Virus record (IMG/VR): IMGVR_UViG_3300018471_000108
Reading direction: 5' to 3' (one strand)
Length of the DNA stretch: 6,554 nt
From: a virus
Taxonomy: Duplodnaviria > Heunggongvirae > Uroviricota > Caudoviricetes
Positions 1-6,554 of the stretch are shown here, one piece after another. The translations under genes and the position numbers were made by a program. Every line of letters begins with the position of its first letter. Within the stretch, counting starts at the first letter, position 1. Under the pieces are notes generated by a model. The model worked only from the letters and a program-made list of their open reading frames with translations. It was not told the DNA's origin and ran no database searches.

Positions 1-31
1 ACTGGAGTTCAGACGTGTGCTCTTCCGATCT
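1..31. other. Synthetic Illumina TruSeq-type adapter (read-2 side), not biological sequence
   Basis: 1..31 reads ACTGGAGTTCAGACGTGTGCTCTTCCGATCT, which matches the 3' part of the TruSeq indexed adapter as I recall it. The insert starts at 32. Confidence 0.9.
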
Positions 32-503
32 CAAAGTGCTCAATAAACCAAGTTAAATCATTGATTGCCTTAGCTCCTGAGAATGAAACATCGTCAAGGT
101 AAATAAATTCACGGAATGAACTAACTCTTTGACGTTGTGACAGTCTGGTCACAACGTTGAATTCTTCTACACAATCTTCGCGAAGCAAATCCAAAAACTC
201 AGATTGACTGGTGCCTTGGTTCTGGATATCGAGAAACGCTGCGGTTTGAAAGAACCTTTCATTTTGCTCATCATTGGCGATACTACTAATAACTCTGCGA
301 TAGTCGCTCTCAGAGAAGTATCCAATCCCCATTAATCGGTCCGTTTCCTCTAAGACAAATCGCCTATCGGTTAACTCAAATTGATTAATCCATCGATTAA
401 CATGATCAATGCTCATGCCACCTTGAGGAGGGTTTCGATAGTCATTTAATTTAGTAGCAATTTGCCCCATAAGATCACGATCTGTAACATTGCTATAACA
501 CAT
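32..503 (-). CDS. Hypothetical protein, N-terminal ~157 aa only; C-terminus lies beyond the insert boundary. Accessory gene immediately downstream of P (ren/nin slot).
   Basis: ATG at 501..503 (minus) preceded by AGGA 7 nt upstream. The frame stays open until it runs into the adapter, so the stop at 9..11 and the last ~8 residues of the track ORF are adapter-derived. AT-rich (~38% GC on a sampled stretch) compared with the adjacent replication genes. No family recognised by eye. Confidence 0.6.
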
Positions 504-2420: not shown

Positions 2421-2966
2421 TCATATTGCCCCCAGCATGGTGGTGACCATCGCCATCAGTGGACCAGCCAAATCCGGGTCCACACGAAACATCGACACAA
2501 TGCCTTCACTCATCTCCTTCAGTTTCTGGTGGCGTGGTGCGTTGAGAATGACAGCCTGTTTTGCCTCACTGAGTTCCTTTTCCATTTCAGCCAGCCGAGC
2601 CATGTAGCTATCCTGCTCAACCAGGTGGCCGCGATATTCCAGCGGTAGTACCGCCAGAATTGCCGGGGTCAGTTCACGCACGTTATTTCGGTATTTTTCA
2701 GAATCGAATTTGTTATCGAGGAAGCGGAACAGCTTCTGGCGTGCACGGCTGACATCATCAGGGAAATCGATGGTGCCGCCGCCCTGCTCCCGATACTCAT
2801 TCACAATGAGTGCGGCAACAACATCCTGATTATCTGCAGCCGACCAGGCGCGAACGGCATCACGGATTTTTTCGTGGCCTGGCGCCTGTTTTGTTTGAGA
2901 ACGATTTATCACCGCAGTCGGGCTAAATCCGCTAGTCTGTTGGTATGTAAGTGGTTGCATAGTCAT
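2421..2966 (-). CDS. CII-like regulator of the YdaT family (functional position of lambda cII)
   Basis: 181 aa ORF with ATG at 2964..2966 (AAGG upstream), lying between the cro-like gene and O. It contains segments (..EYREQGGG.., ..LTPAILAVLPLEYR..) resembling what I recall of E. coli Rac YdaT. The family assignment is from memory, not from a search. Confidence 0.55.
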   Translation of the reverse strand: MTMQPLTYQQTSGFSPTAVINRSQTKQAPGHEKIRDAVRAWSAADNQDVVAALIVNEYREQGGGTIDFPDDVSRARQKLFRFLDNKFDSEKYRNNVRELTPAILAVLPLEYRGHLVEQDSYMARLAEMEKELSEAKQAVILNAPRHQKLKEMSEGIVSMFRVDPDLAGPLMAMVTTMLGAI

Positions 2967-2990
2967 TGCCTTATCAGTTAACGCCGCAGT

Positions 2991-3218
2991 TTAGGCGGCA
3001 GAATTACTCGCGTTAAACAATGGTGCGAGGTCGGGACGAATATCTGCTGGTTTAATCTTTCCACCAGTGGCTGAGACAATTTTCATTACATAGCGGGCAT
3101 CAATTCCGCCACCGTGTAGCCAACGCCAAACTGTGGGTTGGGCTACACCGCATAGATCTGCCAGTCGTTTTTGACTACCTGTAATACTGATTGCGAGTTG
3201 AATGGTTTGATTTGTCAT
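2991..3218 (-). CDS. cro: Cro-like HTH regulator (YdaS family)
   Basis: 75 aa from ATG 3216..3218 (the track ORF begins at a TTG two codons upstream). AGGA Shine-Dalgarno 9 nt upstream. HTH-like segment GSQKRLADLCGVAQPTVWRW and a YdaS-like ...ATGGKIKPADIRPD tail. Divergent from the CI-like gene. Confidence 0.75.
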   Translation of the reverse strand: MTNQTIQLAISITGSQKRLADLCGVAQPTVWRWLHGGGIDARYVMKIVSATGGKIKPADIRPDLAPLFNASNSAA

Positions 3219-3328
3219 TATCAATTCCTATTGGTATTGCAATGAATGAATAATAGCAATGCGTATTAATCCAAGCAATAGCAAAACGTGTTTTGACCAT
3301 CAATACGCAAGCGTATAAATTAAAACTT
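3219..3328. promoter_or_regulatory. OR-like divergent promoter/operator region between cro and cI
   Basis: Minus-strand PR-like promoter: -35 TTGCTT (plus 3273..3278), 17-nt spacer, -10 TATTAT (plus 3250..3255). Plus-strand PRM-like promoter: -35 TTGACC 3293..3298, 16-nt spacer, -10 ATAAAT 3315..3320, placing the transcription start at or near the cI ATG (3329). Repeated AATAGCAA(T) motifs at 3252..3260 and 3277..3284 overlap the PR elements. Inverted repeat ATACGC-AA-GCGTAT at 3303..3316 sits in the PRM spacer. Confidence 0.6.
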
Positions 3329-4021
3329 ATGAAAAAAGAAACTCTTGCTGATCGCTTAAACCTAGCGATGGAACAATCTGGAATGTCTCAAGGCGCTCTT
3401 GCAAAGGCGTCTGGCGTAGCTCAACCCACAATCTGGAGACTGACAAGCGGCAACGCGCGCGGCTCAACAAAAATTGTTGAAATAGCTAATGCATTGGGTG
3501 TTCGAACAGAATGGCTCTCATCAGGCATAGGCCCGATGAGAAATGACGGTCAACAATCAGGGAAGCCTGCTGTCAGCCATTCAAAATACTTCAAGATTGA
3601 CGTTCTTGATATAGAAGTCAGTGCCGGGCCGGGTGTAATCAACCGTGAGTTTGTAGAAGTTCTACGCTCGGTTGAGTACTCGTTTGACGATGCTCGTCAC
3701 ATGTTCGATGGCAGGAAGGCGGAAAATATCCGCATCATTAACGTGCGTGGTGACAGCATGTCAGGAACGATCGAACCAGGTGATCTGCTGTTCGTTGATA
3801 TCACAGTTAAATCTTTCGACGGTGATGGTATCTATGCGTTTCTGTACGACGACACAGCCCATGTAAAGCGCCTGCAAATGATGAAGGATAAGCTGCTGGT
3901 CATCTCTGATAACAAAAGCTACTCACCGTGGGACCCGATCGAGAAAGACGAGATGAACCGGGTGTTCATCTTCGGTAAGGTTATTGGGAGCATGCCGCAG
4001 ACATATAGGAAGCATGGTTAA
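3329..4021 (+). CDS. cI: CI-like prophage repressor (N-terminal HTH, C-terminal S24 LexA-like autopeptidase)
   Basis: HTH segment MSQGALAKASGVAQPTIWRL. C-terminal VRGDSMSGTIEPGDLLFVD (Ser nucleophile in the GDSM motif) and HVKRLQ (Lys) form the S24 Ser-Lys dyad. Start placed at ATG 3329 rather than the track TTG at 3293, because that TTG is the -35 of the predicted PRM-like promoter and the ATG has no Shine-Dalgarno, consistent with a leaderless transcript as in lambda cI. Confidence 0.88.
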   Translation: MKKETLADRLNLAMEQSGMSQGALAKASGVAQPTIWRLTSGNARGSTKIVEIANALGVRTEWLSSGIGPMRNDGQQSGKPAVSHSKYFKIDVLDIEVSAGPGVINREFVEVLRSVEYSFDDARHMFDGRKAENIRIINVRGDSMSGTIEPGDLLFVDITVKSFDGDGIYAFLYDDTAHVKRLQMMKDKLLVISDNKSYSPWDPIEKDEMNRVFIFGKVIGSMPQTYRKHG

Positions 4022-4032
4022 AGTGAGGCTAA

Positions 4033-4069
4033 AAAACAGTTACAGCAATAGGCCTGTTGTTTTTCTTTA
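4033..4069 (+). terminator. Weak hairpin plus T-run after cI (possible leaky attenuator)
   Basis: AAAACAG (4033..4039) can pair imperfectly with CTGTT(G)TTT (4054..4062), followed by TTTTCTTT. The stem is AT-rich and imperfect, so read-through into the downstream cassette is plausible. Confidence 0.25.
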
Positions 4070-4143
4070 AACACGCAGTGTTAAACCGCTCTTTGAGATG
4101 CGGAGTAATGAGATGGAAGACTTGAATCACATAAGGGTTAGTG

Positions 4144-4893
4144 ATGGAGTGCGTAGCGAGCAGCAATAGTGCAATACCTAATGTCGTTGAAGTAATACGT
4201 CGCATCAATGAAGGTTCCACTCAGCCATTTCTTTGCAAATGTGATGATGGGCAGTTGTATGTTTTGAAGTCAAAACCATCAATGCCCCCGAAAAATCTCT
4301 TAGCTGAGTTCATTTCGGCGTGTTTGGCTAATGATATCGGCCTTCCTTTACCTGACTTTAAAATCGTATTTGTGCCAGAGGAACTTATAGAGTACTCACC
4401 TGATCTGCAGCAACAAATTTGTACAGGATATGCCTTTGCTTCATTGTTCATTGACGGTGCAATAGCGTTAACGTTTACGCAGTCAAGAAACGAAACGATC
4501 ATCCCAGTCGAACAGCAAAAATTAATCTATGTTTTTGATAAATGGATATTAAATGCAGACAGAACGCTTACTGACAAAGGTGGAAACGTTAACATCCTTT
4601 ATGACATCAGTAACGATAAGTATTATCTGATTGACCATAATCTCTCATTTGATCAGAATGCTGGACCTGAAGATTTTTCTGTGCACGTGTACGGCCCTGG
4701 TAACCGCAAATGGCAATATGATTTAGTGGATCGCGTAGAGTACCGCCAGAGGGTCGTTAACAGTTTACACAAGCTTCCTGCTATCCTTGACGAAATTCCA
4801 GAAGAGTGGATAGTAGATGAGGAGTTTTTACCTTTTGTCTGCACTACGCTAGACAAAGGTGATTGTGATGAATTTTGGAGCGCAATAGAATGA
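4144..4893 (+). CDS. Short HipA-like kinase-fold protein (accessory, rexA-equivalent position)
   Basis: 249 aa from ATG 4144 (AAGGG Shine-Dalgarno 4133..4137, 6-nt spacer; the track ORF begins at a GTG one codon upstream). The segment VFDKWILNADRTLTDKGGNVNIL...YYLIDHNLSFD resembles the HipA/PI3-4 kinase-type catalytic loop (HipA ...LIGNTDxHxKN...) followed by a D-x-N metal-binding element. YVLKSKP is a candidate ATP-binding lysine. Only ~250 aa, so it lacks the HipA N-terminal domains. AT-rich codon usage. Confidence 0.6.
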   Translation: MECVASSNSAIPNVVEVIRRINEGSTQPFLCKCDDGQLYVLKSKPSMPPKNLLAEFISACLANDIGLPLPDFKIVFVPEELIEYSPDLQQQICTGYAFASLFIDGAIALTFTQSRNETIIPVEQQKLIYVFDKWILNADRTLTDKGGNVNILYDISNDKYYLIDHNLSFDQNAGPEDFSVHVYGPGNRKWQYDLVDRVEYRQRVVNSLHKLPAILDEIPEEWIVDEEFLPFVCTTLDKGDCDEFWSAIE

Positions 4894-5717
4894 CAACTCC
4901 ATGCCTATATAGCATCGTTCGCTATGCGCCTTATGCGGAGACTGAAGAGTTCGCAAACATAGGCGTACTTCTGTGCGCGCCAAAAGAAAATTACTTTGAT
5001 TTCCAGCTCACAAAGCGAAATGACTCTCGTGTAAAGAATTTTTTCCATGATGATTGTATTTTCCCTGTAGCAAAAGACTCAATACAAAGAGAACTACAGT
5101 TCGCAAAAATGCATGCGACCCAGATTGTTGGACATCAACAACTTGCACAATTCTTCAGATATTTTACAAACAAAAAAGAATCAATTTTTCAGTTCAGTTC
5201 TACGAGAGTGATTCTCAGCGAAAACCCAAAAGAAGAGCTGGCCCGCATTTACAATAAATATGTAAACCACTCTGACTACACAAAAGAGCGCCGTGAAGAT
5301 GTTCTAGCCAGAGAGCTAAAACGAAGTATCGATAGAATAGATGGATTGAAGAACGTCTTCAAACAAGCAACCATTGATGGGTATTTCGCAAAGTTCTCAA
5401 TGCCATTGGTCGCCAAGAAGCATGACAGGATCCAATGTGCCATCAAACCTCTGGCATTCACTCAAGCTGAACCAGGAAAAATGATGGAGCATAGTGATAC
5501 TTGGGTGATGAGAATAACTCGAGCAGCAGAAGAAAACCTGCTTTCACTTGATGACATTTTATTCACAATTGAAACTCCTGAATCACCAAACTCAGGCCAA
5601 AGCAAAGTTATTGACATCATAAAGAGAACTATGGATGCTAAGAAAATAAATCATATACCTGCATCCAACCACAAAGAAACTATTGATTTTGCAAAAAAAA
5701 TACTTCCCCAAGTTTAA
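4890..5717 (+). CDS. DUF3037-like protein with C-terminal extension (accessory, rexB-equivalent position)
   Basis: 275 aa from ATG 4890, which overlaps the upstream stop as ATGA (4890..4893). GGAG 9 nt upstream. The N-terminus TPCLYSIVRYAPYAETEEFANIGVLL matches the DUF3037 signature as I recall it (YS..RY.P....EF.N.GV.L). About 140 extra C-terminal residues have no recognised domain. The track ORF start at 4875 is a TTG. Confidence 0.55.
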   Translation: MTTPCLYSIVRYAPYAETEEFANIGVLLCAPKENYFDFQLTKRNDSRVKNFFHDDCIFPVAKDSIQRELQFAKMHATQIVGHQQLAQFFRYFTNKKESIFQFSSTRVILSENPKEELARIYNKYVNHSDYTKERREDVLARELKRSIDRIDGLKNVFKQATIDGYFAKFSMPLVAKKHDRIQCAIKPLAFTQAEPGKMMEHSDTWVMRITRAAEENLLSLDDILFTIETPESPNSGQSKVIDIIKRTMDAKKINHIPASNHKETIDFAKKILPQV

Positions 5718-5751
5718 AATTTATTTTTGTATGTGATATTCCTTATTAATA

Positions 5752-5779
5752 ACCCGGCCACCGTGCCGGGTTTTCTTTT
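5752..5779 (+). terminator. Rho-independent terminator closing the cI-cassette operon
   Basis: ACCCGGC (5752..5758), loop CACCGT, GCCGGGT (5765..5771): a perfect 7-bp GC-rich stem followed by TTTTCTTTT. Confidence 0.8.
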
Positions 5780-5919
5780 GCCTCCCCTCATCACACAAAC
5801 CGCTCAAAAAATCACCATAACCTCGCTTCAGTTATCGCTATGCGATGCAAGTCACAAAATTAATTCTTTTTGCTATCAAACATTTAATATCAAAACACAT
5901 CAACTAATAGCAATAAGTA

Positions 5920-5948
5920 TTGATATCACCAATAGCAATAGCTATTAT
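5920..5948 (+). promoter_or_regulatory. PL-like early-left promoter with overlapping operator motifs (OL-like)
   Basis: -35 TTGATA 5920..5925, 17-nt spacer, -10 TATTAT 5943..5948. AATAGCAAT motifs at 5906..5914 and 5931..5939 (the same 9-mer as in the OR region) and the 10-bp palindrome AATAGCTATT at 5937..5946 overlap the promoter. Confidence 0.55.
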
Positions 5949-6225
5949 CACCATATCGCAACAACACAACGATACGGCAACCACCTGATTCACCGTTGCG
6001 ATGACCGCTTAGATCCGCAGCTTGAATTTCAGCAGGCTTCGGGGAGTGCGAGGGATGAAACGGACGCGTGAACGTCGGTGTGACCAGCTGAAATCAACTC
6101 AACATTTCATACCTTAGTCGCTTCAACGAGGCGGCTTAGTTATGGCAACCGGCGGCCATCCACCGCCTGAATACGCGCAGAAGTCTCTATATGTTCAGCA
6201 GCCCAGCTTACGGGCAGGAGTTTTT

Positions 6226-6432
6226 ATGGTTCATCAACATTACGGAACGCAGACCGTTAATCGCGGCGCGGTCATGCCAGGAATGCTGGTCAAACACAAA
6301 GATGGTACCTGGACTGCATCAGCTAATTTACGCGGACGGCTATATCTGCATCGCGGCATCGAGCGCACTTATACCCGTGATTTGCTCGTGGAAGTTTTTC
6401 TCGACGGACGCGGTAACGGCCTGAATCACTAA
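6226..6432 (+). CDS. Hypothetical small protein (first gene of the early-left transcript); alternative start at 6142
   Basis: ATG 6226 is preceded by AGGAG with a 5-nt spacer. The in-frame ATG at 6142 (GAGG 10 nt upstream) would give 96 aa. No arginine-rich N-terminus, so it does not look like a lambda N-type antiterminator. Confidence 0.4.
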   Translation: MVHQHYGTQTVNRGAVMPGMLVKHKDGTWTASANLRGRLYLHRGIERTYTRDLLVEVFLDGRGNGLNH

Positions 6433-6533: not shown

Positions 6534-6554
6534 AGATCGGAAGAGCGTCGTGTA
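6534..6554. other. Synthetic Illumina TruSeq-type adapter (read-through AGATCGGAAGAGCGTCGTGTA), not biological sequence
   Basis: 6534..6554 reads AGATCGGAAGAGCGTCGTGTA, the canonical start of the TruSeq universal adapter read-through as I recall it. Confidence 0.9.

Follow-up and report, generated by a model that had tools for sequence, protein, structure and literature searches.

The pair of genes that directly follows the CI-type repressor in the 6,554-nucleotide stretch of viral DNA analysed here (hereafter, the window) is, with high probability, the HipAD anti-phage system, borne by a lambdoid E. coli prophage within its immunity region as cargo for expression in the lysogen, with a HipA toxin that would be held by HipD and freed at infection. 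The hipA-hipD cassette is HipAD (DS-6, PDC-M66), a published and tested system, and the identification is therefore correct but not new. The first-pass annotation had predicted a prophage defence system, with which published experiments on identical proteins agree, and had not recognised the pair as a named, validated one; it is in fact the system DS-6, renamed HipAD by the Laub laboratory (PMC13092281, citing Brenes & Laub 2025), and the proposed check against PADLOC finds it already catalogued as candidate PDC-M66, so that the implied novelty is gone.

The identity is exact at the protein level: HipA (249 aa; 4144..4893, + strand) and HipD (275 aa; 4890..5717, + strand) are 100% identical to WP_000389051.1 (DS-6A) and WP_000210934.1 (DS-6B), respectively, they match the PADLOC models PDC-M66A (E 5.8e-15) and PDC-M66B (E 3.8e-16 over 6-271/281), and gene order and the 4-nt overlap are also those of DS-6, the cassette itself being no different. 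The initial guesses of a HipA-like kinase fold and a DUF3037 partner both proved right, since Pfam places HipA_2 (PF20613, E 9.9e-77, profile 1-239/240) on residues 15-248 of the first product and DUF3037 (PF11236, E 7.6e-24) on residues 7-125 of the second; a minimal HipA_2-type kinase, an overlapping same-strand DUF3037 partner and conserved linkage of the two, three features of HipAD, are present. Other resources say little about these proteins: PHROGs labels both families 'unknown function', NCBIfam holds no model for either, and sequence comparison with solved structures returned nothing meaningful (best E-values 0.78 and 0.24). At the DNA level the match is to phage PhiR5_1 (99.9% identical in GenBank), in which the cassette occupies the same prophage position and is annotated as cI, HipA toxin and HipD antitoxin; the two differ downstream of P, where a PRTase-like gene in the window takes the place of the ren gene of PhiR5_1. 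The window is itself a short-read contig of a prophage related to PhiR5_1.

The published tests bear directly on the proteins described here. DS-6 was validated in E. coli, where it lowered plating of Bas1 about 10^3.9-fold (-log(EOP) 3.9) and made the plaques smaller, Bas1 being the one protected phage among the supplementary table entries covered; defence was lost in the kinase mutant D139A, and AlphaFold 3 modelling of the interaction between DS-6A and DS-6B gave an ipTM of 0.76-0.79 (PMC13092281), a model from which direct binding of HipA and HipD may be inferred.

The catalytic residues of HipBA-type kinases (Lys, catalytic Asp, Asn and Mg-binding Asp) appear to be present in HipA, an assignment made by motif, with weak hhalign support: K42, D139, N150 and D164 pair with K181, D309, N314 and D332 of E. 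coli HipA, and the contexts WILNAD139R..N150 and LID164HN match WLIGATD309GHAKN314 and FYD332. These equivalences rest on motif inspection; hhalign, run with the HipA_2 alignment against the single E. coli HipA sequence, aligned 23 columns of the alpha-C region only, at 21% probability. Together with E55, the same four residues are invariant in six diverse homologues, down to 33% identity. The DHN motif (D164-H165-N166), which had been suggested as the site for a catalytic-mutant control, corresponds to D332, a Mg-binding residue in E. coli HipA; the match to D309 is instead D139 (in NAD139R), the residue mutated in the literature.

The position of the cassette is that of a classical immunity-region cargo. 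On the + strand, an OR operator block with a PRM-like promoter (3251..3321; TTGACC-17-TAAATT at 3293-3321, 9/12 matches in a promoter scan), whose function is predicted from the sequence, ends 8 nt 5' of the ATG of the 230-aa repressor (3329..4021), which carries HTH_3 and Peptidase_S24 domains (Pfam, NCBIfam) and whose homologues in PhiR5_1 and E. coli prophages are annotated cI or XRE/S24 repressor. The outer boundary of the region is set by an OL operator block with a PL-like promoter (5905..5954, + strand; TTGATA-17-TATTAT at 5920-5948, the top match of the scan at 10/12), which is predicted to drive the downstream kil-gam-bet-exo genes, Kil itself being recognised by PHROG 294 (E 1e-38). 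A 50-nt operator block is common to OR (3251-3300) and OL (5905-5954), with 74% identity, and these repeats put hipA-hipD within the immunity region, flanked by cI and OL/PL and on the cI strand, as the earlier proposal of a rexAB-type slot (cI, cargo, terminator, OL/PL) had it. Lambda RexAB and the Stk kinase of phage 933W are cI-adjacent cargo with an exclusion role; like HipAD they lie 3' of cI on the same strand, before OL/PL, and act in exclusion or defence, whereas the proteins are unrelated, there being no homology to RexA, RexB or eukaryotic-type kinases and only HipA_2 and DUF3037 among Pfam matches at E <= 0.01. A Rfam search of the whole window (E <= 0.1) gave no match, and the PL-kil leader (5955-6141) showed no significant fold as a possible put-like RNA.

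Both open reading frames and sequence confirm two same-strand genes behind the repressor that overlap by ATGA at 4890-4893. The hipA frame opens at 4141/4144, RefSeq and GenBank placing the start at the ATG at 4144, and putative ribosome-binding sites can be read 8 nt before the hipA ATG (AAGGG) and 10 nt before that of hipD (GGAG). The strong terminator announced after the second gene was borne out as an intrinsic terminator (5751..5779, + strand) that would close the cI-hipA-hipD unit, its stem at 5751-5772 comprising 8 bp (6 GC) followed by a T-run, with a folding energy of -14.2 kcal/mol (z = -3.6; 1/200 shuffles equally stable). The cI-hipA gap (4022-4143) likewise holds, as anticipated, nothing but a weak hairpin (4035..4068, + strand) of 5 bp (AACAG/CTGTT, 4035-4039/4054-4058, 14-nt loop) followed by T5CTTT, at most a leaky terminator, which is conserved among the E. 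coli copies and not in the Klebsiella phage; folding of 4015-4150 was no better than that of shuffles (z = +1.19), and the gap yielded neither a sigma-70 consensus site in the promoter scan nor a convincing palindrome. Transcription of hipA-hipD with cI from the PRM-like promoter is plausible but unproven, and PRM read-through is not required for the pair in general, since distant homologues are free-standing and have no adjoining repressor.

The pair extends well beyond this prophage. It is found in 284/5426 complete E. coli genomes, in 282 of these with at least 99% identity, and in Klebsiella and Salmonella phages it sits in the same repressor-adjacent slot, while the homologues of Pseudomonas, Idiomarina and Sphingomonas are free-standing pairs; the co-occurrence anticipated for the two families thus holds in all of these groups. 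In all three distant homologues (3/3; Pseudomonas, Idiomarina and Sphingomonas) and in three other phage or prophage types, the HipA_2 gene still comes directly before its partner and overlaps it by 4 nt, the arrangement being seen in the Klebsiella and Salmonella phages, and a strong association of the HipA-like and DUF3037 families has been reported (PMC12548924). The terminator is common to other lambdoid phages with different cargo in the slot: 11 other phage records match the window over 5747-5800 only, and in PhiR47_2 and in phage 4A7 that stretch falls where GevA or an ASCH-domain gene has its 3' end. The GevT/GevA cargo of these two phages resembles HipAD in its arrangement (cI, cargo, terminator, kil), in the shared terminator sequence and in being annotated as toxin/antitoxin, and differs in its annotations and sizes (products of about 357 aa and, for the ASCH-domain protein, 125 aa).

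Several known systems help to delineate what HipAD is. Its kinase has the catalytic motifs and contexts of E. coli K-12 HipBA and shares the same toxin-antitoxin logic, yet HipA_2 is here a 249-aa protein without the N-terminal subdomain of the 440-aa K-12 HipA, HipA_2 being its sole Pfam family at E <= 0.01, and its partner is encoded downstream, is 275 aa long and has neither an HTH nor similarity to HipB, whereas HipB lies upstream and carries an HTH; the pair is accordingly not a canonical HipBA module. With HipBST, in which HipA is split into the antitoxin HipS and the kinase HipT, it has in common a core-only kinase and a separate neutralising protein, but, by the fold matches listed for it, HipD does not show the HipA N-subdomain 1 fold of the HipBST antitoxin. 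A functional counterpart belongs to the Retron-Sda1 operon, whose HipA-like/DUF3037 pair defends without the retron, becomes toxic when DUF3037 is deleted and loses defence when HipA is deleted (PMC12548924). That pair consists of the same two families and is likewise a stand-alone defence made of a kinase toxin and a DUF3037 neutraliser; it differs in adjoining a type III retron RT/ncRNA in another host, and the likeness is drawn at the level of family.

Taken as a working model, HipA would be a minimal HipA-family Ser/Thr kinase acting as both toxin and effector, and the translationally coupled HipD, composed of DUF3037 and a C-terminal alpha/beta domain, would hold it inactive, most likely via direct binding. 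Infection by a sensitive phage would lift this restraint, and the freed kinase would block a process essential to host or phage (probably, to judge from HipA and HipT, translation), so that phage propagation would fail with abortive infection as the probable outcome. If HipD were labile and made only from PRM, the toxin would be set loose on induction and turn on the lytic cycle of the very phage that carries it; such self-intoxication speaks against release of HipA by simple decay of the antitoxin, or else against control by PRM alone.

HipD is a more elaborate protein than its family name conveys. Its structural model consists of two well-folded domains (pLDDT 91), the N-terminal DUF3037 (1-125) and a C-terminal domain (about 132-275) that models as a putative restriction-endonuclease-like fold without catalytic acids, a description that is new here. 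The PD-(D/E)xK acids are missing in 79/79 homologues: position 173, after P172, is L in 59/79 and F in 20/79 and never D or E, and the (D/E)xK site reads A184-I-K186, with A at position 184 in 73/79; only K186 and E136 among the motif positions are invariant. Invariance in the C-terminal domain extends to E136, K186, Q192, H201 and W205. An active nuclease in this domain was rejected on motif grounds. A HipS-like nature of DUF3037 was also rejected, no HipS or HipA chain appearing among the fold matches listed, and Pfam detected no HTH or winged-helix DNA-binding domain in any of the homologues (0/79). Previous work has likened the retron-associated DUF3037 protein's C-terminal part to a type III-A1 DNA-binding protein (PMC12548924) and has reported an HHpred match of DS-6B to DUF1829 (probability 0.78; PMC13092281), the latter not being reproduced by hmmscan in HipD.

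Three other interpretations deserve consideration, the most serious of which, though unlikely, is that exclusion is non-abortive, HipA phosphorylating a phage protein or a phage-only host factor in a cell that survives, with HipD as a specificity or regulatory subunit. The published mechanism, described as 'possibly' abortive, is indeed left open, the smaller plaques are compatible with this interpretation as they are with the abortive model (PMC13092281), and a partner of 275 aa with two well-folded domains exceeds the needs of a simple antitoxin; against it stands the toxicity of the DUF3037 deletion in the homologous system (PMC12548924), which indicates that the unrestrained kinase harms uninfected cells in the manner of a toxin. 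That same toxin/antitoxin behaviour of the homologue could be read as the mark of a type II module serving mainly for prophage addiction or stabilisation, phage protection then being a side effect of plasmid expression, and the location on a mobile element, the great uniformity of the pair among E. coli genomes and the state of the genes in Salmonella phage SW-37, where hipA is frameshifted and hipD intact, as is typical of decaying toxin-antitoxin pairs, would suit it. We consider this improbable, since DS-6 protected from a low-copy plasmid with its native promoter region, the slot is an established site of defence genes (lambda rexAB being the textbook case, and GevTA lying there as well) and the free-standing Idiomarina copy adjoins AAA/KAP-NTPase-type genes.

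The C-terminal fold of HipD might also suggest that HipD is the effector nuclease and HipA merely its phosphorylating regulator; this is very improbable given the missing catalytic acids in every homologue and the finding that, in the homologous pair, removal of DUF3037 is toxic and removal of the kinase ends defence (PMC12548924). The evidence as a whole is best accommodated by HipAD as a kinase toxin restrained by HipD and released at infection.

These results illustrate that a reading of sequence alone can correctly single out a defence cassette by where it lies in an immunity region and by its toxin-like architecture. The interest of HipAD now lies in mechanism rather than discovery, namely in what the kinase phosphorylates, what in the phage sets it off, what the two HipD domains do and how self-intoxication at induction is avoided, and for mutagenesis the useful additions are the nuclease-dead C-terminal domain, the invariant residues, the common terminator and the interchangeability of HipAD and GevTA as cargo. 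A speculative extension, which we regard as possible without thinking it likely, is that HipD goes beyond a passive antitoxin and acts as the phage sensor, its degenerate C-terminal fold recognising either a DNA structure or a protein of the phage and thereby freeing the kinase held by DUF3037. Were this so, a prophage carrying the cassette in its cI operon would need a way to avoid triggering it at its own induction, for example through a separate promoter under autoregulation, located in the cI-hipA gap or close to it.

Judged by the sequence of its products, the cassette formed by hipA and hipD downstream of the CI-type repressor gene is a known, named and experimentally validated system, namely a member of HipAD (also DS-6 or PDC-M66) and indeed its very same allele, since its proteins are identical to those of DS-6, tested in PMC13092281, and a homologous pair has been tested in PMC12548924. 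In a script comparison, the window translations match at every residue WP_000389051.1 and WP_000210934.1, the DS-6 sequences given in the supplementary table of the DefensePredictor paper (Science 2026, PMC13092281). DS-6 confers anti-phage defence that is abolished by mutation of a catalytic residue (D139A in the strain list), the raw plaque table gives DS-6 ('HIPA') a -log(EOP) of 3.9 against phage Bas1 with smaller plaques, and AlphaFold3 predicts contacts between subunits A (HipA) and B (HipD) at ipTM 0.76-0.79 and between B and DNA at ipTM 0.67 (PMC13092281). In an independent study, a HipA-like/DUF3037 pair adjoining Retron-Sda1 defends without the retron; deletion of its kinase abolishes defence and deletion of its DUF3037 gene is toxic (PLoS Biol 2025, PMC12548924). 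Among phage records, megablast finds 99.9% identity across 4021-5800 to Escherichia phage PhiR5_1 (PV340545.1), annotated there as 'cI', 'HipA toxin' and 'HipD antitoxin'. The first-pass annotation had proposed a candidate prophage defence system, which the published phage defence by identical proteins bears out (PMC13092281); its remark that it did not recognise the pair as a named, validated system is superseded.

The architecture described there, two coupled same-strand genes behind a CI-like repressor, is upheld in each particular. The repressor (3329..4021, +) matches HTH_3 and Peptidase_S24, and the two ORFs span 4141/4144..4893 (+; ATG at 4144 is the hipA start in RefSeq and GenBank records) and 4890..5717 (+), with hipA stop and hipD start overlapping as ATGA at 4890-4893. 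Inspection reveals plausible ribosome-binding sites, AAGGG 8 nt before the hipA start and GGAG 10 nt before that of hipD. Pfam searches agree with the proposed families, HipA matching HipA_2 (PF20613) over its whole length (E 9.9e-77) and HipD matching DUF3037 (PF11236) at residues 7-125 (E 7.6e-24). The PADLOC HMM library assigns them to PDC-M66A (E 5.8e-15) and PDC-M66B (E 3.8e-16), and the pair is therefore already catalogued as a defence candidate.

The cassette is confirmed to lie within the immunity region, in the rexAB slot as had been suggested. A 50-nt block at 3251-3300 has a 74% identical second copy at 5905-5954, which contains the region's top promoter-like site (5920-5948, TTGATA-17-TATTAT), PL-like and ahead of kil (product PHROG 294, E 1e-38); these features identify the blocks, with their promoters, as the presumptive OR/PRM and OL/PL, flanking cI and the cassette. 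The OR and OL regions (3251-3321, 5905-5954) also share the operator-like words TAATAGCAAT / CAATAGCAA. Because the PRM-like -10 element ends only 8 nt 5' of the cI ATG (3329), a leaderless or near-leaderless cI mRNA is suggested; in lambda, the cI mRNA from PRM is leaderless. An intrinsic terminator does follow hipD (5751-5779, +), with an 8-bp stem (6 GC) at 5751-5772, a T-run and a folding energy of -14.2 kcal/mol (z = -3.6 versus shuffles). The sole hairpin of the 122-nt cI-hipA spacer is likewise as weak as had been noted (5 bp, then T5CTTT), the spacer folding no better than shuffles (z = +1.19), and a scan of it found neither a consensus promoter nor a palindromic operator. Given the common strand, the weak spacer hairpin, the single strong terminator and the PRM-like promoter, the proposed co-transcription with cI from PRM seems a reasonable model. 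PRM read-through is not required for expression, because a DS-6 clone carrying no more than the 'predicted native promoter region' is active (PMC13092281) and free-standing homologues exist. With a labile antitoxin and exclusive PRM control, the phage's own induction would be poisoned.

The cassette (1574 bp) occurs in 284 of 5426 complete E. coli genomes, once in each and always on the chromosome, with at least 99% identity in 282 of the 284 copies; 267 genomes match the window over 80% or more of its length. Repressor adjacency was examined in PhiR5_1, three E. coli genomes and two further phages. E. coli 042, 48 (cassette 96% identical) and 268.2 keep the order cro / repressor followed by hipA, hipD, kil, gam, bet and exo, and the pair lies directly 3' of the repressor in Klebsiella phage Kp4864-1 (HipD 84% identical) and Salmonella phage SW-37 (52%), where the genes opposite the repressors are of CII and not YdaT type and the SW-37 repressor has HTH family matches only. 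In SW-37 (L003 2786-3504) hipD is intact and hipA frameshifted, through toxin decay or through an error in sequencing: by tblastn, residues 13-52 fall in frame 2 and residues 43-249 in frame 1, and the longest ORF spans no more than profile positions 73-240. Co-occurrence extends beyond these phages: three distant HipD homologues, from Pseudomonas, Idiomarina and Sphingomonas (24-34% identity), each directly follow a HipA_2 gene, with the 4-nt overlap kept, and none of these three loci has a repressor adjoining the pair, which argues that the pair is an autonomous module captured by lambdoid phages into the cI-adjacent slot. Cargo in this slot is exchangeable: in eleven further phage records the megablast match is confined to the terminator region (5747-5800), and PhiR47_2 (L013 2075-3503) and 4A7 (L014 2087-3503) present cI, cargo, terminator and kil with a different two-gene cassette, ending at the terminator sequence common to the window; its genes are annotated as GevT toxin / GevA antitoxin in PhiR47_2, and in 4A7 as one hypothetical and one ASCH-domain protein.

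HipA_2 proteins appear to retain the kinase catalytic set: no substitution at K42, E55, D139, N150 or D164 occurs among six homologues, the most distant of them 33% identical. By motif inspection, on which the residue equivalences are based, their contexts (YVLK42; WILNAD139R...GGN150; LID164HN) mirror IIK181, WLIGATD309GHAKN314 and FYD332 of E. coli HipA; hhalign against that single sequence aligned the alpha-C region alone. For HipD, an AlphaFold2 model built from 79 homologues (pLDDT 91.3, pTM 0.56) indicates two confident domains in loose mutual orientation. In the DUF3037 domain (1-125) an acidic loop, E17-T18-E19-E20-F21-x-N23-x-G25, is invariant, and the modelled C-terminal domain (about 132-275) follows the alpha-beta-beta-beta-alpha-beta order of restriction-endonuclease-like folds. 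Its catalytic acids are absent in 79 of 79 sequences (L or F comes after P172, and A184-I-K186 occupies the (D/E)xK position), E136, K186, Q192, H201 and W205 being conserved; a nuclease-dead, endonuclease-like domain could possibly serve as sensor.

HipD would keep HipA inactive through direct binding, as suggested by the published AlphaFold3 models and by the toxicity of DUF3037 gene deletion in the homologue. Phage infection would free the kinase, whose activity (D139) would arrest a process required for phage growth, probably with an abortive outcome for the infected cell. HipA acts on GltX and HipT on TrpS, and by analogy translation is the likely target.

Elsewhere in the window, 1-31 and 6534-6554 are Illumina TruSeq adapter (ACTGGAGTTCAGACGTGTGCTCTTCCGATCT ... 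AGATCGGAAGAGCGTCGTGTA), so the window is an untrimmed short-read contig, and the final residues of ORF 9..503 (-) derive from adapter. The PRTase-CE / phrog_8525 gene (32-503, -; Pfam E 1.4e-17), cut at the contig end, weakly matches retron PRTase_III-A in PADLOC and has no DNA-level match among phage records. It directly follows replication gene P, in the position of ren in PhiR5_1 and E. coli 042; E. coli 268.2 (L011 1339-2972) has a full 339-aa 'phosphoribosyltransferase-like protein' and then a NADAR-family gene, which may form a second defence-type cargo pair. Within the O gene (-; 1867-1983), a 22-nt repeat (TTACCTGATTCGGGTAA core) occurs five times at 19-29 nt spacing; these copies are the ori iterons to be expected in a replication module of the lambda O type. 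Pfam 'YdaS_toxin' and 'YdaT_toxin' match the Cro-like and CII-like genes (2421-3224, -); these genes stand at the cro and cII positions of the immunity region and PhiR5_1 annotates their counterparts as Cro and cII, so the 'toxin' names are misleading for annotation. No N-like ORF lies at 5955-6141, between the PL-like promoter and kil, nor do PhiR5_1 and the E. coli prophages annotate a gene there; Rfam matches nothing in this 187-nt leader, which folds no better than shuffles (z = -0.15). The kil start codon is uncertain, because the longest ORF (6142-6432, +) encodes 96 aa, PHROG 294 covering residues 20-96, whereas the RefSeq annotation here is limited to a 'cell division inhibitor' of 68 aa (207 nt).

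The cassette would operate like the toxin-antitoxin kinases HipBA and HipBST, yet it has neither the N-subdomain (HipA, 249 aa, is without that of E. coli HipA) nor the HipB-type HTH of the former: no HTH was detected in HipD across 79 homologues. The HipS-like fold of HipBST was not found either, and neither HipS nor the HipA N-domain is among the HipD fold matches listed. Lambda RexAB and 933W Stk occupy a cI-adjacent slot with an exclusion/defence role, and only this slot and role are common with the cassette. The cassette being already known, the novelty that remains lies in its mechanism, namely in the endonuclease-like domain of HipD as a possible sensor and in self-avoidance on induction.
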